Shown piece after piece: positions 1 to 44,527 of a DNA stretch of 64,000 bases; the first letter of the stretch is position 1, and every line of letters begins with the position of its first letter. Under the pieces are notes generated by a model. That model was given only the letters and a program-made list of their open reading frames with translations, searched no databases and was not told the DNA's origin. Source of the DNA: Candidatus Harrisonbacteria bacterium (GTDB taxonomy: Bacteria > Patescibacteriota > Minisyncoccia > UBA6257 > 1-14-0-10-40-38); assembly GCA_023245035.1 (NCBI GenBank), contig JAHFLD010000001.1:719-64718 (forward strand), given 5' to 3'. A program made the translations under genes and the position numbers.

Positions 1-1136
1 TTATGGAGGTAATTGAATCTTCCATCGCTGCCGCCTATAAAAAAGAATACGAAAAGAAGAGCGAAATAATCAAAGCGAAGTTTGATCAAAAAACCGGCAG
101 CTTGAATTTTTGGCAGATAAAAACCGTAGTCACCGAAGACATGGTACGAATGGTTAGCGAAGACGAGGAAGAGCCATCCGCGCCAGTAAACGATGTCGGC
201 ATTGCCGAAGAAGAAAAACTGCCTCGATACAACCCCGACCGACACATCTTGCTTAATGAAGCAAAGAAAATAAAACCAGACGCGGCTCCCGGCGAGGAAA
301 TGCTATTCGCGCTGGAAACCCACGAGGATTTCGGCCGCATCGCGGCTCAAACCGCCAAACAAGTCATTCTGCAAAAACTACGAGAAGCGGAACGCGACTC
401 GGTACTCAAGGAATTTCAAAATCGCGAGGGTGAAATAGTAAGTGGCGTTGTCCAGCGATTTGACCAGGGCAACGTCTTTATCGATCTAGGACGCGCGAGC
501 GGAATTATGTTCTACAACGAGACCATTCCCGGAGAGCACTACCGCCCCGGCGAGCGACTCCGCTTCCTTATAGTCAGTATTCAAAATGAAACTAGAATCC
601 CGGGGATTATCTTGTCGCGATCCCATCCGCGCTTTATCGAAAAACTTTTCGCGCTAGAAGTGCCGGAAGTTTCCGATGGCATGATAGAGGTTAAATCCAT
701 CGCTCGCGAGCCGGGAAGCCGAACCAAAATCGCCGTCGTCTCCAAAAACAATATGGTAGACCCGGTAGGCTCCTGCGTTGGGCCGCGTGGCACTCGGGTT
801 ATGGCCGTCTCCAATGAAATCGGCCAAGAGAAAATTGACATCATTCCTTGGTCTGAAGAACCGACTGAATTTATCTCCAACGCCTTATCTCCGGCTAAAG
901 TAAAAGAAGTCAAAATTCTACCACACCGCGAAGCTCAAGTTTTCGTACCCGAAGATCAATTAAGTTTGGCTATCGGGCGCGGCGGCCAAAACGTGCGCCT
1001 CGCCGCCAAATTAACCGGTTGGAAGATTGACGTTCGCTCGGAAGCCCGACCCAACGAGATTAATATGGAAGGAATCGCTCAAACCGATCACCAACCGGAA
1101 TCACCCAAAGAAAAAGTCGTCAAAGATAACAAATAA
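1..1136 (+). CDS. nusA: Transcription termination/antitermination factor NusA, 5'-truncated by the window edge.
   Basis: S1 and KH-domain-like sequence ([10 protein letters not shown]...[15 protein letters not shown]) with a C-terminal acidic tail. The N-terminus aligns to an internal part of NusA, so the gene starts upstream of the window. Confidence 0.85.
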
Positions 1137-6360: not shown

Positions 6361-6378
6361 GAGCGGGTAAGGGGAATC
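6361..6378 (-). repeat. 18-nt direct repeat of the tRNA-Trp 3' end (gagcgggtaaggggaatc), 196 bp downstream of the tRNA in its own orientation.
   Basis: Identical 18-mer at 6361-6378 and 6557-6574. The intervening 183 bp holds a perfect 22-nt palindrome (6392-6413) and two further hairpins. Confidence 0.6.
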
Positions 6379-6512
6379 TCACACGTCGCTTCCCTGCCTG
6401 CCGGCAGGCAGGGCTCCTTTTCAAACCCCTCGGTTTGAATAATTCCGCCACGGGAAAACTGTAGTTTTCCCGACCCCTTTCCTCTTCGATTCCCCTCATT
6501 TACTAGCACAAG

Positions 6513-6542
6513 TCTAAAAACAAAACCCGCACTAAGGGCGGG
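6513..6542 (-). terminator. Rho-independent terminator of tRNA-Trp.
   Basis: On the minus strand, CCCGC-loop-GCGGG is followed by TTTTGTTTTT, immediately 3' of the tRNA. Confidence 0.6.
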
Positions 6543-6557
6543 AATTGTTTTTAGATG

Positions 6558-6628
6558 AGCGGGTAAGGGGAATCGAACCCCTGTCAACAGGTTGGAAACC
6601 TGTGGTATTGCCACTATACTATACCCGC
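6558..6628 (-). tRNA. trnW: tRNA-Trp (anticodon CCA).
   Basis: Hand-folded cloverleaf: acceptor GCGGGTA/TACCCGC, D-stem GTAT/ATAC, anticodon stem ACAGG/CCTGT with loop TTTCCAA, T-arm AGGGG-TTCGATT-CCCCT. CCA is not encoded. Confidence 0.9.
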
Positions 6629-6680: not shown

Positions 6681-7280
6681 ATGTCTAAACGGCAAAAGCT
6701 CACTCTGGCGATCGTTGCCGGATTCATTGGTATTGGCGGCGGGGTCTATCTTGCCGCTCGTCTTTTGATACCCACCGCCTACATCCCGCCGGTATTTTCC
6801 GAAGCGCGGATTAACGGCGCAGGCTTTGCCAAAAATATCGTCTCCCTTTTGGAAGAGTCAGTGCGTCATCTTCAAGAGATTGCCGCTTTTGACAGGGAAG
6901 GCAACGCGCCAGAGGCCCTAACCTTGATCTCGCAGGAGGTCATCAAAAACCGAAACATCCAACAAGAAGCCATCAAACTATCCTCGGAGTTGGAAAAAAT
7001 GGCGCGAGCCATCCCCGAAGTCCGCCCCGATTCAGCTCGTTTCGCGGCCACCGAAGCTTTGAGTTCCGAAATCGCCCTCGTTAGCCACCTACTAAACTAC
7101 ACCGCCGCCCTGCGCGAGCTATTTGATGTCTTGCGTTCAAAACTCAACCGAACAACGGCCACCGAAGAACAAGTGCGCAGTCTTATCGCCGGCATCAACC
7201 GTGAAGCCGAAGCCATCAACGATCTCAATCAGAAGTTTAACAACGCCTTGCAGGAATTAGACAACGCCATCTTAAAATAA
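6681..7280 (+). CDS. Hypothetical protein with an N-terminal transmembrane anchor.
   Basis: 199-aa ORF with a TATAAT-like box at 6668; hydrophobic N-terminus (LTLAIVAGFIGIGGGVYLAA). No recognisable domain. Confidence 0.45.
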   Translation: MSKRQKLTLAIVAGFIGIGGGVYLAARLLIPTAYIPPVFSEARINGAGFAKNIVSLLEESVRHLQEIAAFDREGNAPEALTLISQEVIKNRNIQQEAIKLSSELEKMARAIPEVRPDSARFAATEALSSEIALVSHLLNYTAALRELFDVLRSKLNRTTATEEQVRSLIAGINREAEAINDLNQKFNNALQELDNAILK

Positions 7281-7322: not shown

Positions 7323-7393
7323 CGGAGAGTAGTGTAATGGTAGCACGAGTCCTTTGGGAGGATTTAGTTCGGGTTCGAATCCCGGCTCTCCGA
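7323..7393 (+). tRNA. trnP: tRNA-Pro (anticodon TGG).
   Basis: Acceptor CGGAGAG/CTCTCCG, anticodon stem AGTCC/GGATT with loop TTTGGGA (G37), T-arm TCGGG-TTCGAAT-CCCGG. No encoded CCA. Confidence 0.88.
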
Positions 7394-7394
7394 C

Positions 7395-7469
7395 GCCCTT
7401 GTAGCTTAATGGATAAAGCAGGACTCTTCTAAGGTCTTGATGGGGGTTCGATTCCCTCCGAGGGCACCA
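7395..7469 (+). tRNA. trnR: tRNA-Arg (anticodon TCT), CCA encoded.
   Basis: Acceptor GCCCTTG/CGAGGGC, D-stem GCTT/AAGC, anticodon loop CTTCTAA, T-arm GGGGG-TTCGATT-CCCTC, then A-CCA. It starts 1 nt after tRNA-Pro. Confidence 0.88.
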
Positions 7470-16226: not shown

Positions 16227-18350
16227 TTATTCAAAATGCACTCTAGCCTCAAACAACGCCAAACGATCGCGAAGTTCTGGATGTTGGGCCAGCTCCGGAT
16301 CTTTTTCCAAAACCAAGAAAGCCTCTTTTTTACTCTCGCCGACCAGCTCCAAATTCGCTAGTGCCCGCATCGCATAATCAGGAAATCCCGTTTGCTGATC
16401 GCCCAAAAACTCTCCGGGGCCCCGAAGTTCCAAGTCCATCTCCGCCAACTCAAAGCCATTCTTGGCCCGCACCAAGGCCTGCAAACGACCTCGCGCGGAA
16501 GCCGATTTTGATTCGGTGAACAACAAACAATACGATTGGTGTTCGCCTCGACCGATTCGTCCGCGAAACTGATACAATTGCGCCAGACCAAAAAAATCGG
16601 CGCCCTCAATAATCATCACGCTGGCGTTTGGCACGTTGACTCCGACCTCCACCACCGAAGTAGCCACCAAAACCGAAATCGCCCCGATTGAAAAATCCGC
16701 CATAATCCGCTTTTTTTCCTTGGCCGGAAGCTGTCCGTGAAGCATCGCCACCGAAAAATCGGGAAAGATCTCGCGCGATAACCGCTCATATTCGGCAGTT
16801 ACGGTTTTAACCTCAATCTTTGAAGCCAGCAGAGAAGAATCAGTAACTTCGGCCTCCTTAATTCGCGGACAGATCACAAAAACTTGCCGCCCGCGGCGCA
16901 ACTCCTCCCGAATAAATTCATAGGCCTTGCCTCGGCGATTCGGATCCACAACCTTGGTAATTATCGCCTTACGCCCCTGGGGCAGCTCCCGCAGAGTTGA
17001 AATGTCCAGATCGCCAAAAACAGTCAGCGACAAAGTACGTGGAATCGGCGTAGCGGTCATGGAGAGAAAGTGCGGCACAAAATTCTGGCCTCGCAAAAGC
17101 GACGCTCGCTGACGCACACCAAAGCGGTGTTGCTCGTCCACCACCACCAACGCCAATCGCTTAAAAACCAAATCATCTTGGAGCAAGGCATGAGTGCCCA
17201 CCACGATATCCAGCTCTCCCTTGGCTCCGTCCCGCTTAACACTGTGCTTTTCGGCCAAAGCATGCGAACCGACAAGCAAGCCGATCCTCGGACGGACGGA
17301 AAAACCTGGACCGCTAAAAATCCTGGTCAAAGTTTCATGGTGCTGGCGCGCCAAAATTTCCGTCGGCGCCAAAAAAACCGTTTGAGCTCCGCTGCGAAAT
17401 GCCGTCCAGGCAGCCAAAGCCGCGATAACCGTCTTACCCGAACCAACATCGCCCTGCAACAAGCGATGCATTGGAAAAGACCGGCCAATATCTCTTAAAA
17501 TTTCATCCAAACAATCTTTTTGGCCCGCGGTCAGGCTAAACGGCAAGGCCGAAATAAATTCAGCCCGCCACTCTGGCTTAATCGGAAGCGCCAAAGCCTT
17601 CTCGCGCACCACTATGAGTCGCTGTTTAAAATTCATTATCTGAATCAGAAAAAGATCTTCAAACGCGAACCGTTTTTCGGCACGGCGCGCCTCTTCGAGC
17701 GTCTTCGGAAAATGAATGGTCCGCAACGCTTCAATCAGCCGCGGCAAATTCTGTCGCGCCAAAACCTCAGCCGGAAGCGGATCCGAAATTTTATCCAAAA
17801 CAGCGAGTAACGGCTGGATTAAATAACGCAAACCGCGAGATGTCAGCCCCTTAGTCTCGGAATAAATAGGAATCAGACCGCTCGTATGCCGAGCGACATC
17901 CCCTGGTCGCACCACCTCGTAAGCCGGACTGGAAAAATAAACCCCCTCCTTGCCGTCGCTCACCTTGCCCGCCAATCTCACCGTCAAGCCAGCCCGCAAC
18001 TGATTAACTATATATGGCTGGTTAAACCAAACCACCCTTACTCCACCGGAATCATCGGCCACAATCGCTTCTATAATAGTCATGTTCCGGCGCCAGGCGC
18101 GCCGACTCGTAATTTTCTTTACCTCGCCGCAAACCGTCGCCTGTGTTTTTGGCACCAATTCGGCTATCGGCAAAATCGAGGAGAAATCATCGTACCTAAC
18201 CGGAAAATGAAAGAGCAAATCGCGTACCGTCAAAATTTGAAGTGTTCGTAAGCGCTCTAAAAAATAACTCTTCAATCCTCGGATCTTTGTGAGCTCGGTC
18301 GCTAAAGTAATCATGAGTGCCGGTCTAACCCAAACCAAACTCAATTTCAA
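16227..18350 (-). CDS. recG: ATP-dependent DNA helicase RecG.
   Basis: Wedge/OB N-terminal region, Walker A GDVGSGKT, DEQHRFGV, and superfamily-2 helicase C-terminal motifs. Confidence 0.9.
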   Translation of the reverse strand: MKLSLVWVRPALMITLATELTKIRGLKSYFLERLRTLQILTVRDLLFHFPVRYDDFSSILPIAELVPKTQATVCGEVKKITSRRAWRRNMTIIEAIVADDSGGVRVVWFNQPYIVNQLRAGLTVRLAGKVSDGKEGVYFSSPAYEVVRPGDVARHTSGLIPIYSETKGLTSRGLRYLIQPLLAVLDKISDPLPAEVLARQNLPRLIEALRTIHFPKTLEEARRAEKRFAFEDLFLIQIMNFKQRLIVVREKALALPIKPEWRAEFISALPFSLTAGQKDCLDEILRDIGRSFPMHRLLQGDVGSGKTVIAALAAWTAFRSGAQTVFLAPTEILARQHHETLTRIFSGPGFSVRPRIGLLVGSHALAEKHSVKRDGAKGELDIVVGTHALLQDDLVFKRLALVVVDEQHRFGVRQRASLLRGQNFVPHFLSMTATPIPRTLSLTVFGDLDISTLRELPQGRKAIITKVVDPNRRGKAYEFIREELRRGRQVFVICPRIKEAEVTDSSLLASKIEVKTVTAEYERLSREIFPDFSVAMLHGQLPAKEKKRIMADFSIGAISVLVATSVVEVGVNVPNASVMIIEGADFFGLAQLYQFRGRIGRGEHQSYCLLFTESKSASARGRLQALVRAKNGFELAEMDLELRGPGEFLGDQQTGFPDYAMRALANLELVGESKKEAFLVLEKDPELAQHPELRDRLALFEARVHFE

Positions 18351-18370: not shown

Positions 18371-18535
18371 TGCGTCCACCAGGGGTCGAACCTGGGACCG
18401 TCTCCTTGCAATCGGCAGCGAGATGGAAAATAAATGGCTGAAATTCCTACTTGGTGCGTCCACCAGGGATCGAACCTGGGACCGTCTCCTTGCAATCGGC
18501 AGCGAGATGAAAAATAAATGGCTAAAATTCCTACT
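18371..18535 (-). repeat. Two extra copies of the tRNA-Lys 3' half (positions 37-76, including T-arm, acceptor and CCA), each followed by a 49-nt spacer. Period is 84 nt.
   Basis: tggtgcgtccaccaggg(a/g)tcgaacctgggaccgtctcctt at 18371-18407 (variant, no CCA) and 18452-18491, identical to 18536-18575 inside the complete tRNA. Spacer is ttgcaatcggcagcgagatg(g/a)aaaataaatggct(g/a)aaattcctact. Confidence 0.8.
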
Positions 18536-18611
18536 TGGTGCGTCCACCAGGGATCGAACCTGGGACCGTCTCCTTAAGAGGGAGCTGCTCTACCAGCTGA
18601 GCTATGGACGC
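18536..18611 (-). tRNA. trnK: tRNA-Lys (anticodon CTT), CCA encoded. It is the only complete copy in the array.
   Basis: Minus-strand fold: acceptor GCGTCCA/TGGACGC, D-arm GCTC-AGCTGGTA-GAGC, anticodon stem GCTCC/GGAGA (27-43 is G-A), loop CTCTTAA, T-arm CCAGG-TTCGATC-CCTGG, then A-CCA. Confidence 0.85.
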
Positions 18612-18794
18612 ACTAAATAGAAATTTCTATGGCTATTTATTTTCGACGAGCGAACCGATTGGTATTTAGAGGGAGCTGCTCTACCAGCTGAGCTATGGAC
18701 GCACTAAATAGAAATTTCTATGGCTATTTATTTTCGACGAGCGAACCGATTGGTATTTAGAGGGAGCTGCTCTACCAGCTGAGCTATGGACGCA
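18612..18794 (-). repeat. Two extra copies of the tRNA-Lys 5' half (positions -2 to 35), each preceded on the plus strand by a 56-nt spacer. Period is 91 nt.
   Basis: agagggagctgctctaccagctgagctatggacgcac at 18668-18704 and 18759-18794, identical to 18577-18613. Spacer is taaatagaaatttctatggctatttattttcgacgagcgaaccgattggtatttag; its reverse complement is about 70% identical to the 49-nt spacer. Confidence 0.8.
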
Positions 18795-18873
18795 AAGCGC
18801 ACCTATTGTACAACAATATAGGCGGGCTTTCAACACACCGAAAGACCCTTGCCCTGTGGTATGATAATATCCA

Positions 18874-41823: not shown

Positions 41824-43197
41824 ATGGAGTTCGACCAACTATGGCAGTCGGCTCTTGGAGAAATAGAACTCCAAGTTTCGCGCCCAAATTTTGTGACCTG
41901 GTTTAAAAATAGCAAGCTCATCGACAAAAAAGAGGGGACGGCGCTTATTGGTCTGCCCAACAACTTTGCCAAAGAGTGGGTGGAGAACAAATACAACAAG
42001 GTAATCCTTGGGACCTTGCGTGGCATGGATGACAGCACTAAAAAAGTGGAATTTGTCGTCTACAACGAGCGTACCGCTCAAAAACCGACCATCAAATCCG
42101 GAACTAAAGTTGCTATCAATAAAAACGATGATTTTGGCCAGCTATCTTTTAGTGAGTTTAAAGTTGATCAAGTCACCAATCTAAATTCTAAATACACCCT
42201 AAGCTCCTATGTTGTCGGCAAAAGCAACGAGATGGCCTACGCGGCGGCCATGGCGGTAATTGATTCGGTGGGAAACAAATACAACCCCTTATTTATCTAC
42301 GGCGGAGTCGGCTTGGGCAAAACCCATCTTATGCAAGGCATGGGTAATGAGGTAGCTCTAAAATACGGGGGCAAAATCAGAGTGAAATACGTCTCTTCGG
42401 AAAAATTCACCAACGACGTCGTTTGGGCTATTAGAAACAAGCGCATGGAAACAGTTAAAGAAAAATATCGCCTCATTGATATGTTGATTATCGACGACAT
42501 TCAATTCATTGCCGGCAAACCCAGCACCGAAGAAGAATTTTTTCACACCTTTAACGCCCTCCATGAAAACAACAAGCAAATTATCATCTCCTCCGATCGC
42601 CCGCCAAAGTTCATTCCAACCCTCGAGGAGCGCCTCCGCTCGCGTTTTGAGGGTGGAATGGTGGTTGACATCGGGGTACCCGATTACGAACTGCGCTTGG
42701 CTATTATTCGATCCAAGCTCCAAGACAAAAAGGCTGTTTTAAGCGATGAGATCATTGACTTAGTAGCCAACAAGATTCAAAAAAACTTCCGTGAAGTTGA
42801 GGGTATCATCAATAAAATACTCTTCTACCAAAGCCGAAAAAATGGCGAGATAACCGCTAAAAACGTTGAGGAAATTATTAGCGAATCCAGTCAGGAACCC
42901 ACCAAAAACATCAACCCTAACCTGATTATTAAAGCCGTAGCTGAATTCTCCGAAATAGCGCCATTGGACCTGCTCAACAAATCTCGCAAAAAAGAAGTGG
43001 CCGAAGCCCGACAAATCCTGATGTATCTTCTGCGGGAGATGCTTCAGCTATCCTATCCTCACATAGGCCGAAGAATCGGCAAACGCGATCATACCACCGC
43101 CATTTATGCTTATGAAAAAATTGCCAGGGAAATCCAAAAAAATCCGGCCCTTAACCAAAAAATTCTTATTATCAAAGAATTAATCAGCAAGGGTTAG
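41824..43197 (+). CDS. dnaA: Chromosomal replication initiator DnaA.
   Basis: AAA+ Walker A (GGVGLGKTHL), sensor motifs, and a C-terminal DNA-binding helix-turn-helix. Confidence 0.92.
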   Translation: MEFDQLWQSALGEIELQVSRPNFVTWFKNSKLIDKKEGTALIGLPNNFAKEWVENKYNKVILGTLRGMDDSTKKVEFVVYNERTAQKPTIKSGTKVAINKNDDFGQLSFSEFKVDQVTNLNSKYTLSSYVVGKSNEMAYAAAMAVIDSVGNKYNPLFIYGGVGLGKTHLMQGMGNEVALKYGGKIRVKYVSSEKFTNDVVWAIRNKRMETVKEKYRLIDMLIIDDIQFIAGKPSTEEEFFHTFNALHENNKQIIISSDRPPKFIPTLEERLRSRFEGGMVVDIGVPDYELRLAIIRSKLQDKKAVLSDEIIDLVANKIQKNFREVEGIINKILFYQSRKNGEITAKNVEEIISESSQEPTKNINPNLIIKAVAEFSEIAPLDLLNKSRKKEVAEARQILMYLLREMLQLSYPHIGRRIGKRDHTTAIYAYEKIAREIQKNPALNQKILIIKELISKG

Positions 43198-43411
43198 TGG
43201 TGTGAATAACCGGTTAAGAAAGACTTGATATTTTGTGGAAATAAAAATTAAATTTAAAAAATAGAAACTTCTAAACACCCTAATCAACAATTCAACCGAA
43301 GTTTTGCACAATCAAAAAAAATTAAAATAAAAAAATAACCCTTATAGATTAAGTCTTAAATAAAGATTAAACTAACTTATCCACTTTTCCCCAGTTACTA
43401 CTACTACTGCT
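43198..43411. promoter_or_regulatory. dnaA-dnaN intergenic region: AT-rich with DnaA boxes (candidate oriC / DNA-unwinding element).
   Basis: TGTGAATAA (43201), TGTGGAAAT (43234), TTATCCACT (43377), and long A/T tracts. Confidence 0.55.
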
Positions 43412-44527
43412 ATGAATCTAATCATATTAAAAGATAATCTAAGAGAAGGGCTTAACACTCTTGAAAGAGCCGTGGCGGAAAGTAATACTCTGCCGATTCT
43501 CAAAAATATTTTAATTCAAACCGAAGCCGGAAAAGTTAAACTCTCGGCTACTAATTTGGAAATCGGAGTAACTAACCTTTTATTCGGAAAAATATCCGAA
43601 GAGGGAAGTGTTACGGTTCCCTTTCAGGCCTTGTATAGCATTATTGTGAATAGCGACACCGAAAGAATTAACTTAATTTCTTCAGGAACAACCCTAATAG
43701 TTAAAGGTGAAAATTACGAAGCCAAAATTCAAGGATTAAATCCGGAAGAGTTCCCAATAATTCCCAAAATAAACAATGAAACCAATAGTATTGAAATCGA
43801 TCCTGGTTCGTTTAAATCGGGCTTAAGTGATGTTTCTATCGCCGCTCACATCTCCGAGATCCGCCCGGAGATAAGCGGCATTCTCTTTGATTTTCAGATT
43901 GGTATTATAAAATTAGTAGCTACTGATAGTTTTCGTCTCGCCGAAAAAACCATTGATCACACTAAATTCAAAACCAATTTTAACCAAGGTTTTAAAACAA
44001 TTATTCCTCTTAAAACCATTCAAGAGATAATGCGGATTTTCAGCGACACCAAGCCGATTAAAATATATTTTGATAATCACCAAATACTCATAAAAAACGA
44101 AACCACCGAGCTGATTTCGCGAATTATTGAGGGGAATTATCCGGATTACGAACAAATTATTCCAAAAAACATCGAAACCGAAATTACCGTTAAAAGAGAG
44201 AATCTGGTTAACGCCTTAAAACTAGTCAGCACTTTCTCTAGTAAAACCAATGATGTTCGCCTTAAAATCACCGAAAATAGTAAGGCGATGGAATTGTATT
44301 CCATAAATCAAAGCCTTGGTGAAAATAATTATCTAATACCAATTAAAAGCAAGGGAGCGGATAATAAAAGCCTTAGCTTTAACTGGCGTTACTTATTAGA
44401 CGGCTTGAAAGCTATTAAAACCGAAGATATCTTTTTCGGCATTAACAGTAACAACCGCCCGGCGCTTCTAAAGTCACCCGAGAGCCGCGATTATTTCTAT
44501 ATTTTAATGCCAATCAAGGGAGATTAA
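43412..44527 (+). CDS. dnaN: DNA polymerase III beta sliding clamp.
   Basis: Three-domain clamp about 370 aa long with the conserved N-terminal region; directly downstream of dnaA. Confidence 0.9.
   Translation: MNLIILKDNLREGLNTLERAVAESNTLPILKNILIQTEAGKVKLSATNLEIGVTNLLFGKISEEGSVTVPFQALYSIIVNSDTERINLISSGTTLIVKGENYEAKIQGLNPEEFPIIPKINNETNSIEIDPGSFKSGLSDVSIAAHISEIRPEISGILFDFQIGIIKLVATDSFRLAEKTIDHTKFKTNFNQGFKTIIPLKTIQEIMRIFSDTKPIKIYFDNHQILIKNETTELISRIIEGNYPDYEQIIPKNIETEITVKRENLVNALKLVSTFSSKTNDVRLKITENSKAMELYSINQSLGENNYLIPIKSKGADNKSLSFNWRYLLDGLKAIKTEDIFFGINSNNRPALLKSPESRDYFYILMPIKGD

Follow-up and report, generated by a model that had tools for sequence, protein, structure and literature searches.

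How does a tRNA gene come to lie between copies of its own two halves? The question is raised by a locus on the minus strand of a 64-kb window (the whole stretch of 64,000 nucleotides that was analysed), whose host is bacterial, as judged from the tmRNA and RecG that it encodes, and is a groundwater bacterium of the Paceibacteria (CPR). Here a complete tRNA-Lys(CTT) gene is preceded by copies of its own 5' half and followed by copies of its own 3' half, with a spacer between each element and the next. Literature searches turned up no earlier account of bacterial tRNA genes that are nested or flanked by their own halves; a tRNA-Lys gene nested within itself is an arrangement for which we found no prior description.

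Anatomy and assembly of the array

The array (18793-18371, minus strand) reads 5' half (nt 1-35), 56-nt spacer (spA), 5' half, spA, tRNA-Lys(CTT) with CCA, 44-nt spacer (spB), 3' half (nt 37-76), spB and 3' half (nt 37-73). Its elements and immediate neighbours are as follows.

18805-18833, minus strand: sigma-70-like promoter TTGAAA-17-TACAAT, which ends 11 nt before the outermost 5' half begins
18759-18793, minus strand: outermost 5' half, an exact copy of tRNA nt 1-35, read as the remnant of the resident gene's 5' exon
18703-18758, minus strand: spA copy 1, 56 nt, left inverted-repeat arm of the outer cassette
18668-18702, minus strand: middle 5' half, an exact copy of nt 1-35, putative 5' portion of the tRNA of the first cassette, which a second insertion would have split
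18612-18667, minus strand: spA copy 2, 56 nt, same sequence as copy 1, left arm of the inner cassette
18536-18611, minus strand: tRNA-Lys(CTT) with encoded CCA (65.8 bits), the sole intact copy, presumably functional
18492-18535, minus strand: spB copy 1, 44 nt, complementary to spA, with conserved loop CATCTCGCTG, right arm of the inner cassette
18452-18491, minus strand: middle 3' half, nt 37-76, CCA present, T-loop T as in the inner copy
18408-18451, minus strand: spB copy 2, 44 nt, two T>C differences from copy 1, right arm of the outer cassette
18371-18407, minus strand: outermost 3' half, nt 37-73, without CCA, read as the remnant of the resident gene's 3' exon
16227-18314, minus strand: recG, 695 aa, 56 nt downstream of the array

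ARAGORN and Rfam agree on a single complete tRNA-Lys(CTT), at 18611-18536(-). Tandem repeats identified by TRF have a period of 91 on the 5' side (2.4 copies, 100 % identity) and of 84 on the 3' side (2.5 copies, 97 %), and the two meet at 18576, which is T36, a nucleotide present in the complete copy only. The first-pass annotation had placed the elements where we find them and had given both periods (91 and 84 nt), the end of the 5' repeats at position 35, the start of the 3' repeats at 37 and the restriction of position 36 to the complete copy, all of which hold; the 3' spacer likewise exists, but its length is 44 nt instead of the 49 nt given there when the encoded CCA is assigned to the tRNA copy. 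The 5' copies seem to extend to nt 38 (CTCTAAA) in the window, an extension that is absent in other lineages. The first copy of spA contains stem 1 (CAATCGG), a conserved loop (TTCGCTCGTCG), stem 2 (AAAATAAATAGC) and a ATAGAAATTTCTAT hairpin. In its T loop the outermost 3' half has a single T>C change, and the same C is found in the sister genome L088. Second-layer junctions (CTCT/AAATACC and GATTGC/AAGG) are identical to those of the first layer, with T36 missing in both. The unit that is repeated, 56 + 76 + 44 nt or ~176 bp, contains no plausible ORF.

According to a promoter scan, the site at 18805-18833 is the only promoter-like sequence on the minus strand here and spA has no internal promoter; the homologous promoter-proximal flank adjoins the outer 5' half in both L088 and a further lineage, L031. 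That recG lies directly downstream on the same strand, as first annotated, is correct, although its start is ATG at 18314 and not TTG at 18350. Since there is no terminator between the array and recG, the two are probably co-transcribed. A tRNA-Lys(CTT) beside recG is conserved synteny in the Paceibacteria. In the window, L088 and L029, recG is co-oriented with the nest and no terminator intervenes; between lineages, the orientation of nest relative to recG varies.

The source data are a short-read metagenome assembly, and both Logan contigs (k=31) that were built from run SRR14366769 break at the array, so that mis-assembly of an ordinary single tRNA-Lys into a repeat has to be considered. 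We regard this as highly improbable. De Bruijn assemblers collapse repeats and do not invent them, the Logan contigs end at 18765 and 18415, exactly where 31-mers cease to be unique, and at least five further MAGs, which come from separate studies and were built with different assemblers, contain analogous nests of other sequence. The array is, moreover, byte-identical in ENA contig ERZ27280176 k141_2769979. Because it contains no repeated 141-mer and its 3' units are told apart by SNPs, two layers is a resolvable count.

Spacer pairing and nests in related genomes

The spacers had been proposed to be mutually complementary, and this is borne out: spA aligns with the reverse complement of spB at a score of 30, compared with 9.6 ± 3.5 for shuffled sequences (0/2000 reach 30) and 14 in direct orientation, and the spA/spB RNA cofold has z = -6.2. 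The minimum-free-energy fold of the whole array is fully nested (-163 kcal/mol, z = -6.3), with spA paired to spB, the outer halves paired in a tRNA-like manner, and acceptor, D, T and partial anticodon stems in every layer, in agreement with the earlier prediction that a 5'-half unit would pair with a 3'-half unit through both stems and spacers. Arm pairing is significant in every nest (z = -4.9 to -12). In the covariation analysis of the stems, 96 % of cells are paired and 11 of 19 pairs are changed on both sides, none on one side only; the changes are exclusively double Watson-Crick changes, and the internal loop between the covarying stems is conserved in sequence. A strand-asymmetry test of the arm helices gave no sense-strand advantage (148 Watson-Crick pairs vs 10 G·U), and on this result we dropped the idea of a helix shaped mainly by RNA-level selection. 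Stem covariation without strand bias points to an inverted repeat acting as DNA.

A search for the spacers elsewhere had been suggested as a check. The spacer motif occurs four times in the 64-kb window, all within the array (0 expected), and among 80 recG loci assembled for comparison (L004-L083) arm motifs are confined to tRNA-Lys nests; no cassette was found outside such nests in the window, the 80 loci or viral contigs. A spA-like 17-mer with three mismatches lies beside the tmRNA (57141-57125), probably by chance. Viral contigs gave no match to the junction pattern and four to a degenerate spacer motif, none with extra tRNA-half copies nearby and probably due to chance; the tRNA-Lys body identified one viral contig (L089), in which an integrase adjoins a partial tRNA-Lys(CTT). 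Phage GenBank records matched the tRNA body only, never the spacers.

Comparison with related loci upstream of recG, another check that had been suggested, revealed not random decaying duplicates but a split point and a spacer complementarity that recur across lineages. L088 contains the same cassette in one layer and was the only locus recovered in a metagenome scan for the 5'-half/spacer junction; the lineage that it forms with the window (lineage A) is otherwise unsampled, the next RecG being at most 56 % identical. One-layer tRNA-Lys(CTT) nests occur in four further Paceibacteria lineages (L031, L070, L072 and L029). In every Lys nest but that of L029, where the 5' copy stops at C31, T35 is the last nucleotide of this copy, and the 3' copy starts at A37 except in L031 and L072, where it starts at T36. 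The latter nucleotide is thus missing at the 3' junction in three of five lineages, and nt 36 is absent from both families of halves in the window, L088, L070 and L029. All six Lys nests are symmetrical, with equal numbers of 5' and 3' layers, and the window, which has synteny and cassette in common with L088, exceeds it by a single layer on the 5' and the 3' side alike. In a tRNA-Glu nest (L028) the outer 5' half also ends at T35, with six differences from the inner tRNA. A filled and an empty site can be compared directly in L031 and L077: the intact tRNA of L077 aligns to the outer halves of L031, in which 169 nt are inserted at 35/36; both flanks are homologous, and those of L077 abut the intact tRNA without any trace of arms. 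Of the 38 tRNA-Lys(CTT) loci in the recG comparison set, 31 have neither a nest nor a cassette remnant. The outer halves match the inner tRNA exactly in four lineages; they are interrupted in L072 and absent from L044 and L028, which indicates that they are probably dispensable. A separate family of duplications, of T-loop type, is common at tRNAs in these genomes.

Divergence of the cassette does not follow that of its surroundings. Between the window and L088, identity in the flanks is 75.8-80.5 % and the remaining intergenic DNA cannot be aligned, whereas the array is 98 % identical and the spacers 99 % (spA 56/56, spB 43/44). The reverse is seen between L070 and L072, where flank identity is 84 % and the tRNA does not differ, yet the spacers are ~55-60 % identical, with indels, each genome retaining its own complementarity. 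Cassette history thus appears to be decoupled from host history in both directions, and these two lineage pairs suggest that the cassette behaves as a horizontally exchanged unit, although strong purifying selection for function may alternatively account for the window/L088 spacers. Within each genome the copies evolve in concert: a D-loop C/T difference is common to all copies of a genome, and a compensatory pair specific to L031 (A28·T42) is found in outer halves and inner tRNA alike. Because inner and outer copies in the Lys nests have the same sequence, these nests do not directly show the inner tRNA to be of foreign origin; only the Glu case does.

A proposed cassette within its own target, and the alternatives

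Our preferred explanation, to which we would assign a probability of about 0.55, is that a protein-less, site-specific inverted-repeat cassette splits the resident tRNA-Lys gene, brings a replacement and gains layers by homing-like repair. The data show the resident tRNA-Lys(CUU) gene to be interrupted in the anticodon loop, after U35, by a ~176-bp cassette in which two imperfect inverted-repeat arms, spA and spB, surround a complete tRNA-Lys(CUU). On our explanation, insertion would inactivate the resident copy, whose two 'exons' would persist as the outer halves, and the cassette tRNA would serve as a replacement transcribed from the resident promoter, so that only the innermost tRNA would be functional. 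Because the cassette re-creates an intact target, a second event could take place within its own tRNA, giving two concentric layers. The primary transcript is predicted to fold into nested dolls, in which the long spA·spB duplex, including the internal loop of conserved sequence, probably serves as a processing stem of RNase III type; cleavage there would release the inner pre-tRNA, to be matured by RNase P and trimmed at its 3' end. Layer gain, and entry into empty alleles, would occur by homologous, out-of-register repair: a break in an intact anticodon loop would be repaired from a filled copy, the broken ends pairing with the outer halves, so that spA-tRNA-spB would be copied in one symmetrical step, with exact reproduction of the old junctions and co-conversion of the flanking half-tRNAs. 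Identical second-layer junctions are predicted by templated copying of this kind and not by a fresh cut-and-paste event. Gene conversion would then maintain the identity of outer and inner copies, leaving the edge nucleotide T36 free to drift. Against the explanation, T36 is absent at the 3' junction in three of five lineages, and a precise insertion at 35/36 then requires later drift at that one position. The break at 35/36 and the first insertion we only infer, because no endonuclease, integrase or transposase was identified.

Several established routes to such an insertion were considered and rejected. Conservative tyrosine or serine recombination, TA-targeting elements (IS630/mariner) and IS200/IS605-type insertion do not fit, there being no shared overlap and no target-site duplication, with T36 lost. 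The CTTAAG palindrome at nt 34-39 was considered as a restriction-type target, but no cut in it yields the 35/37 boundaries. Splicing of the outer tRNA, of BHB or group I type, was discarded since the junctions give the anticodons CUA, CUG or CUC, not CUU, and vary between lineages.

Of the options raised at the outset, a hairpin-flanked tRNA expanded in place came closest, yet simple slippage is at odds with a recurrent, site-specific insertion at 35/36 that behaves as an exchanged cassette. In its fuller form this explanation, which we consider unlikely, proposes an ancestral tRNA-Lys with a leader/trailer processing stem, expanded by slippage or unequal crossing-over between half-tRNA repeats and followed by vertical inheritance, concerted evolution and frequent loss. 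It accommodates well the perfect tandem repeats, the evident gene conversion between copies, the copying of first-layer junctions in the second layer and the restriction of the cassette to this locus, but it leaves unexplained why the first-layer break falls at the same 35/36 in lineages with different spacers, and in tRNA-Glu, and why 5' and 3' copy numbers are constantly equal; the empty site in L077, where homologous flanks meet an intact tRNA, and the decoupling of spacer and flank divergence both ways also argue against it. Serial integration and excision by tyrosine integrases at the anticodon loop, with islands deleted to tens of bases and their remnants amplified, had likewise been raised and has only a small chance of being correct. 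The anticodon loop is a classic sublocation for integrase crossover, the right half of the nest (tRNA-spB-3' half) resembles attL...attR, and both the viral contig L089 and the frequency of T-loop-type duplications can be cited in favour of integrase scars. Against this, duplication is no less frequent for 5' halves than for 3' halves, the two arms complement each other and covary, neither integrase nor island remnant was found, the same deletion would be needed anew in each layer and lineage, and no overlap sequence is conserved at the junctions.

It is also conceivable, but in our judgement quite improbable, that the nested RNA itself is functional, the leader (5' half-spA) and trailer (spB-3' half) that remain after excision of the inner tRNA forming a stable two-piece tRNA-like particle. 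Such a particle might be an analogue of a split tRNA, might work as a decoy against nucleases of the anticodon loop (an idea that was and remains speculation), might protect recG mRNA as a cap at its 5' end or might provide a scaffold for processing. The tRNA-like stems of every layer of the predicted fold, the near-identity of the spacers in the window and L088, whose flanking genes are 76-80 % identical, the conserved internal loop, the outer halves identical to inner tRNA in four lineages and the co-oriented recG would all be expected of a functional RNA. Nevertheless, the Lys anticodon cannot be rebuilt without nt 36, the outer halves tolerate interruption or loss, most tRNA-Lys(CTT) loci in the comparison set are free of nests, spacers of L070 and L072 diverge faster than their flanks, folding has no sense-strand advantage and almost no G·U pairs, and the nest does not keep a constant orientation to recG.

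Relation to known systems and significance

The principle of disrupting a tRNA gene while bringing a replacement is documented in the tRNA-dependent lysogeny of mycobacteriophage Fionnbharth and its relatives, temperate phages with a tyrosine integrase and a ~10-bp common core (PMC10865867). Both systems involve tRNA-Lys, and here too the outer halves are discontinuous and the inner tRNA-Lys complete; in that case, however, a phage or island carries its own integrase, whereas the present cassette is a non-coding, inverted-repeat-bounded unit of ~176 bp in the anticodon loop, dependent on the host promoter and recursively nested, with a junction pattern that has no viral-contig match. Islands and prophages in tRNA genes (Islander-type attL/attR) share with the array the anticodon-loop site, a displaced fragment marking the end of the insert and regeneration of an intact tRNA. 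The junctions at 35/36-37 indeed lie inside the anticodon loop, where, as in the T loop or at the 3' end, integrase crossovers fall, but instead of a one-sided duplication bordering an island with integrase remnants and non-complementary arms, both halves are displaced and duplicated equally and a whole tRNA is carried between inverted-repeat arms.

Group I introns in Patescibacteria tRNA genes are strongly enriched at 35/36, some with homing endonuclease genes (PMC13011429). They share with the cassette the phylum, the phosphodiester after U35, a preserved tRNA supply and an inferred homing-like spread, yet the insert studied here is too small and lacks a ribozyme core, supplies a second gene copy instead of splicing, and leaves exons that in most lineages cannot be rejoined into tRNA-Lys. 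Rfam searches, run at the gathering threshold and also more permissively (to E <= 5) on the window and on ten loci, returned only tRNAs and tmRNA; although insertion after U35 would fit a group I intron, that candidate was rejected in the absence of an RF00028 match.

The likeness to the split tRNAs of Nanoarchaeum equitans, to which the first-pass annotation had drawn attention, turns out to be superficial. There too the halves are divided in the anticodon loop, with complementary sequences after the 5' half and before the 3' half, but those genes are archaeal, dispersed and equipped with their own promoters, have no intact counterpart, and are joined by splicing endonuclease and ligase. The host here is bacterial, an intact gene is present, the adjacent halves appear to be dead remnants, interrupted or lost in relatives, and there is no RNA-strand bias; since they lack nt 36, the halves cannot be joined into tRNA-Lys. 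With MITEs and REPINs the cassette has in common its small size, lack of coding capacity, imperfect terminal inverted repeats and non-autonomy, and differs in having no target-site duplication, no dispersed copies, a single specific target and a functional gene identical to that target. A classic MITE was rejected, as the L031/L077 junctions have no target-site duplication and arm motifs occur only in the array (64-kb window) and in tRNA-Lys nests (80 recG loci).

Two ways are known in which an insert can occupy an essential tRNA gene and leave the host alive: introns splice themselves out, and integrative elements restore the end of the gene. If our preferred reading is true, the cassette would be a third solution, far smaller than both and able to recurse. 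With less than even confidence, we tentatively propose that it represents a new class of selfish DNA in minimal form, a homing cassette that encodes no protein and is a gene within its own gene. Lodged in the anticodon loop of a single-copy tRNA gene on which the host depends, it would carry a fresh copy of that gene instead of a ribozyme, nest recursively by regenerating its target and pass from one CPR lineage to another through homologous repair of breaks, possibly with the endonucleases of 35/36 tRNA introns. From the nests, successive events of break and repair at a single nucleotide position could be counted as nature has recorded them in unculturable organisms, and the nests would provide a link to the unexplained enrichment of 35/36 intron insertions in Patescibacteria. 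For annotation of CPR tRNAs, half-tRNAs and nested copies will be mis-called or will break contigs, as in the Logan assembly. Finally, the conserved internal loop between covarying stems may indicate an as yet undescribed processing or recombination factor in these reduced genomes.

Architecture and assembly of the tRNA-Lys array

The array is read on the minus strand, with glgA on its promoter side and recG downstream. The order of half-molecules, spacers and complete gene described in the first-pass annotation was borne out by minus-strand reading, ARAGORN, Rfam and TRF. The spacers to the left (spA) and right (spB) of the tRNA copy are the arms of an inverted repeat.

Features of the array
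18833-18805, minus strand: sigma-70-like promoter, TTGAAA-17-TACAAT, ending 11 nt upstream of the outermost 5' half
18793-18371, minus strand: tRNA-Lys array, in the order 5' half, spA, 5' half, spA, complete tRNA-Lys, spB, 3' half, spB, 3' half
Within the array, minus strand: two 5' halves, tRNA nt 1-35, each followed by a 56-nt spA
18611-18536, minus strand: complete tRNA-Lys(CTT) with encoded CCA (ARAGORN; Rfam 65.8 bits)
Within the array, minus strand: spB, 44 nt, after the complete tRNA and after the middle 3' half
Within the array, minus strand: middle 3' half, nt 37-76
Within the array, minus strand: outermost 3' half, nt 37-73, with one T>C in the T loop and without CCA

The length of 56 nt first given for the 5' spacer stands, whereas the 3' spacer, put at 49 nt, measures 44 nt if CCA is assigned to the tRNA copy; the array does lie upstream of recG on the same strand, with the recG start corrected to ATG 18314. 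TRF resolved tandem arrays of period 91 (2.4 copies, 100% identity) and period 84 (2.5 copies, 97%), which abut at 18576, that is, at T36, in agreement with a separate repeat search; T36 is confined to the complete copy and absent from the halves. Nucleotides 34-39 (window 18574-18579), comprising the anticodon and the next bases, form the palindrome CTTAAG, at which no simple restriction-type cut yields the 35|37 boundaries.

The proposed complementarity of the spacers was upheld, spA aligning to the reverse complement of spB with a score of 30 (shuffles 9.6 +/- 3.5, 0/2000 reaching 30) and to spB in direct orientation with a score of 14. Their common motif, CAATCGG-N10-AAAATAAATRGC, occurs four times in 64 kb (0 expected), all within the array, so that the suggested search beyond it yielded no further occurrence in the window. 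The 441-nt array transcript has a fully nested predicted fold (-163 kcal/mol, z = -6.3) in which the inner cloverleaf sits atop a long spA·spB stem enclosed by the tRNA-like fold of the next half pair, twice over, in keeping with the earlier proposal that 5'-half and 3'-half units pair through stems and spacers. A promoter scan found no promoter-like site within the spacers, and no terminator was found between the array and recG.

The alternative of an assembly artefact was also considered. Against it, ENA contig ERZ27280176 k141_2769979 carries the array with every base identical, and the Logan contigs (k=31, run SRR14366769) extending from glgA and from recG end at 18765 and 18415 respectively, the exact limits of unique 31-mers. 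Since no 141-mer within the array is repeated and SNPs distinguish the 3' units, two layers is a resolvable count. The chief reason for regarding the nest (a tRNA with its own halves on both sides) as real is that comparable nests of different sequence are present in MAGs from other studies and assemblers. The tRNA-Lys nest is confirmed as real, recurrent and site-specific.

Nests and an empty site in related genomes

The host is a Patescibacteria/Paceibacteria bacterium whose best RecG matches among species-representative genomes are 44-55% identical, all from CPR MAGs. Adjacency of tRNA-Lys(CTT) to recG is conserved synteny, found in 38 of the 80 recG loci compared. All tRNAs of these 80 loci were screened for extra half copies and the matches read individually, which identified four one-layer nests at tRNA-Lys(CTT).

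One-layer nests among the recG loci
L031: 5' copy to T35, 3' copy from T36/A37
L070: 5' copy to T35, 3' copy from A37
L072: boundaries as in L070 (T35 / A37), both outer halves broken up by small inserts
L029: 5' copy nt 1-31, 3' copy from A37

A metagenome scan for the diagnostic junction added L088, from Hainich groundwater (RecG 79% identical to that of the window), with the same glgA-array-recG synteny and cassette (spA-tRNA-spB) in one layer only. All six Lys nests are symmetric, five being 1+1 and the window 2+2. In every nest spA/spB pairing is well above shuffles (z = -4.9 to -12), and the arms have a common architecture of an optional hairpin, a 7-8-bp stem1, an internal loop and a long stem2, the helix being continuous with the acceptor stem; the internal loop (~11x10 nt) is conserved in sequence (TTCGCTCRTYG on the spA side, CAYYTCGCTG on the spB side).

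The origin of the halves is indicated by L077, a relative of L031 with a plain tRNA-Lys that aligns to the outer 5' and outer 3' halves of L031. A 169-nt spA-tRNA-spB block is inserted in L031 exactly between T35 and T36, and the flanks are homologous on both promoter and terminator sides. Because this empty site aligns across the insertion, the outer halves represent the resident gene and the cassette the insert. These data show that an inverted-repeat cassette with a full tRNA-Lys was inserted site-specifically into the anticodon loop of a resident tRNA-Lys, after U35, and that such insertion has happened in several lineages, with two nested layers in the window. We consider a nested-insertion architecture quite probable.

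Comparison of orthologous recG-upstream loci, as had been proposed, showed a recurrent split point. Outer halves are interrupted in L072, absent in L044 and lost on the 3' side in L028. L072 (tRNA 387-460, minus strand) reads as a decayed nest: a 33-nt insert breaks the outer 5' half behind nt 23, a 27-nt hairpin (GTCCCCGTGAAGACGGGGAT) within its T arm splits the outer 3' half, and more GC-rich hairpins of this sort lie upstream. L044 retains a spA-like leader and the leader/trailer duplex and has no outer halves. At L028 (8048-8300, plus strand) a tRNA-Glu(TTC) with a 20-bp complementary spacer pair lies downstream of an outer 5' half; this half likewise stops at T35, and six of its positions do not match the inner tRNA. 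No outer 3' half is recognisable, and the locus may be a nest with a foreign inner tRNA. Just past the outer 3' half of L070 (3500-3516, plus strand) lies an extra, inverted spA-like core (GGTTCGCTCGCGAAAAA) adjoining antisense of the acceptor end.

Evolution and possible spread of the cassette

The window and L088 share 80.5% identity on the glgA side and 75.8% in recG, and their remaining intergenic DNA is unalignable, whereas the arrays are 98% identical (spA 56/56, spB 43/44); at most one change per 100 spacer positions, given ~22% background divergence, has a probability of the order of 1e-9. Conversely, L070 and L072 have flanks 84% identical, an almost identical promoter region and identical tRNAs, but spacers only ~55-60% identical, with indels, each near-perfectly complementary to its own partner arm. 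The history of the cassette is therefore decoupled from that of its host in both directions, a pattern that agrees better with exchange of cassette alleles than with uniform functional constraint or neutral decay.

Across four lineages and two stems, 96% of positions paired, falling to 35-55% in slid controls; 11/19 stem pairs had changed on both sides and 0/19 on one side only. A strand-asymmetry test of the arms gave no sense-strand advantage, antisense folds being equally or more stable, and Watson-Crick pairs outnumbered G·U pairs by 148 to 10, so the arms behave as DNA-level inverted repeats. Copies within a genome evolve in concert, as the window and L088 differ by C/T in the D loop uniformly across all copies of each genome, and the L031-specific compensatory pair A28·T42 occurs in outer halves and inner tRNA alike. 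At the 3' junction A37 is preceded by C, T, T, G and A in the five lineages (T36 retained in 2/5). An original insertion at 35/36, with gene conversion sparing only the nucleotide at the edge of homology, would be expected to give this pattern. In the window the inner-layer junctions are identical to the outer, including the absence of T36, as expected of templated copying and not of a fresh cut. The T-loop C of the outermost 3' half is of the L088 type and the middle and inner copies carry T, which fits mutation in the functional copy followed by layer gain.

Our working model is that the innermost tRNA-Lys would be the sole functional copy, expressed from the resident promoter. The stems of rRNA and T7 transcripts are established precedents for RNase III-type processing, and by analogy the duplex of spA and spB, interrupted by the conserved internal loop, may be such a processing stem. 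Spread and layer gain would be due to homologous repair of a homing-like kind: when an intact anticodon loop is broken, a filled copy would serve as template while the broken ends pair with the outer halves; such repair would explain the symmetry, identical junctions, half co-conversion and recursion. In Patescibacteria tRNA genes, position 35/36 is strongly enriched for group I introns, of which some carry homing endonuclease genes (PMC13011429); it is therefore plausible that a 35/36-directed endonuclease makes the break. The homing-type mechanism is offered only tentatively.

Two main rivals were weighed. One is a functional two-piece RNA, favoured by the nested predicted fold and by the loop conserved between covarying stems and opposed by the strand symmetry of the arms; the other is local expansion with vertical inheritance, opposed by the decoupled cassette history. 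Overall, a nested, self-targeting inverted-repeat cassette with a replacement tRNA is the best explanation, at a probability of roughly 55%.

Other tRNA-associated sequences and known systems

A second family of tRNA-associated elements consists of a structured block of ~120-170 nt that follows the tRNA and a terminator hairpin. The block comprises an inverted T-arm copy, a conserved core GGAAAGGGGTCGGGAAAAC...GTTTTCCCGTGGnGGA, one or two hairpins and AGCGACG..GAG, and closes with a directly repeated copy of the tRNA portion between the T loop and nt 73. Rfam gave no match; the block resembles either a miniature element that integrates at the T loop (att scar family) or an ncRNA not yet described.

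Second-family elements
6361-6556 of the window, minus strand: downstream of tRNA-Gly(TCC) 6557-6628; fold z = -3.6
Other loci: L088 (Phe), L040 (Arg), L025 (Pro and Arg), L008 (Arg), L013 (Met), L058/L077/L019/L031 (Lys), L075 (Ser), L078 (Glu)

At L075 (1964-2215, plus strand) two additional copies of the first ~29 nt of tRNA-Ser(GCT) stand upstream of the gene, each followed by a pseudo anticodon-arm hairpin (period 81), with no 3' copies; in contrast to the Lys nests, this array is asymmetric. On viral contig L089 (IMG/VR UViG_3300028887_002483; 6940-7230, minus strand) a tyrosine recombinase C-terminus (…LRHSYATKLLESG…LLGHSDLKTTQ) is followed by the first ~53 nt of tRNA-Lys(CTT); this is an ordinary phage att site, in the tRNA species that also houses the nest. 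In the window, tRNA-Pro(TGG) and tRNA-Arg(TCT) (7323-7469, plus strand) abut at 7394/7395 with zero spacer, CCA is encoded in some tRNAs (Arg, Phe, Lys) and absent from others (Gly, Pro, His), and GC content falls to 0.40 at 42001-44000 (background ~0.50), which may be foreign DNA.

Several known systems were rejected as accounts of the nest: an integrase att scar, since duplication extends to both halves, the arms complement each other and no island is present; a group I intron, there being no ribozyme match in Rfam; and a MITE, given neither target-site duplication nor dispersed copies in the window or the 80 recG loci. The analogy drawn in the first-pass annotation with Nanoarchaeum-type split tRNAs holds as a structural likeness and otherwise fails: the locus contains an intact gene, and its halves lack nt 36 and decay. 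A full-text literature search found no description of such tRNA nests. The system that works most like them is tRNA-dependent lysogeny, in which the host tRNA is disrupted and a replacement brought along (PMC10865867), whereas the nest is a 176-bp non-coding cassette and not a phage. The nest is a further form of the principle of inserting into a tRNA gene while preserving tRNA supply, and its cassette is possibly a new class of minimal selfish element.
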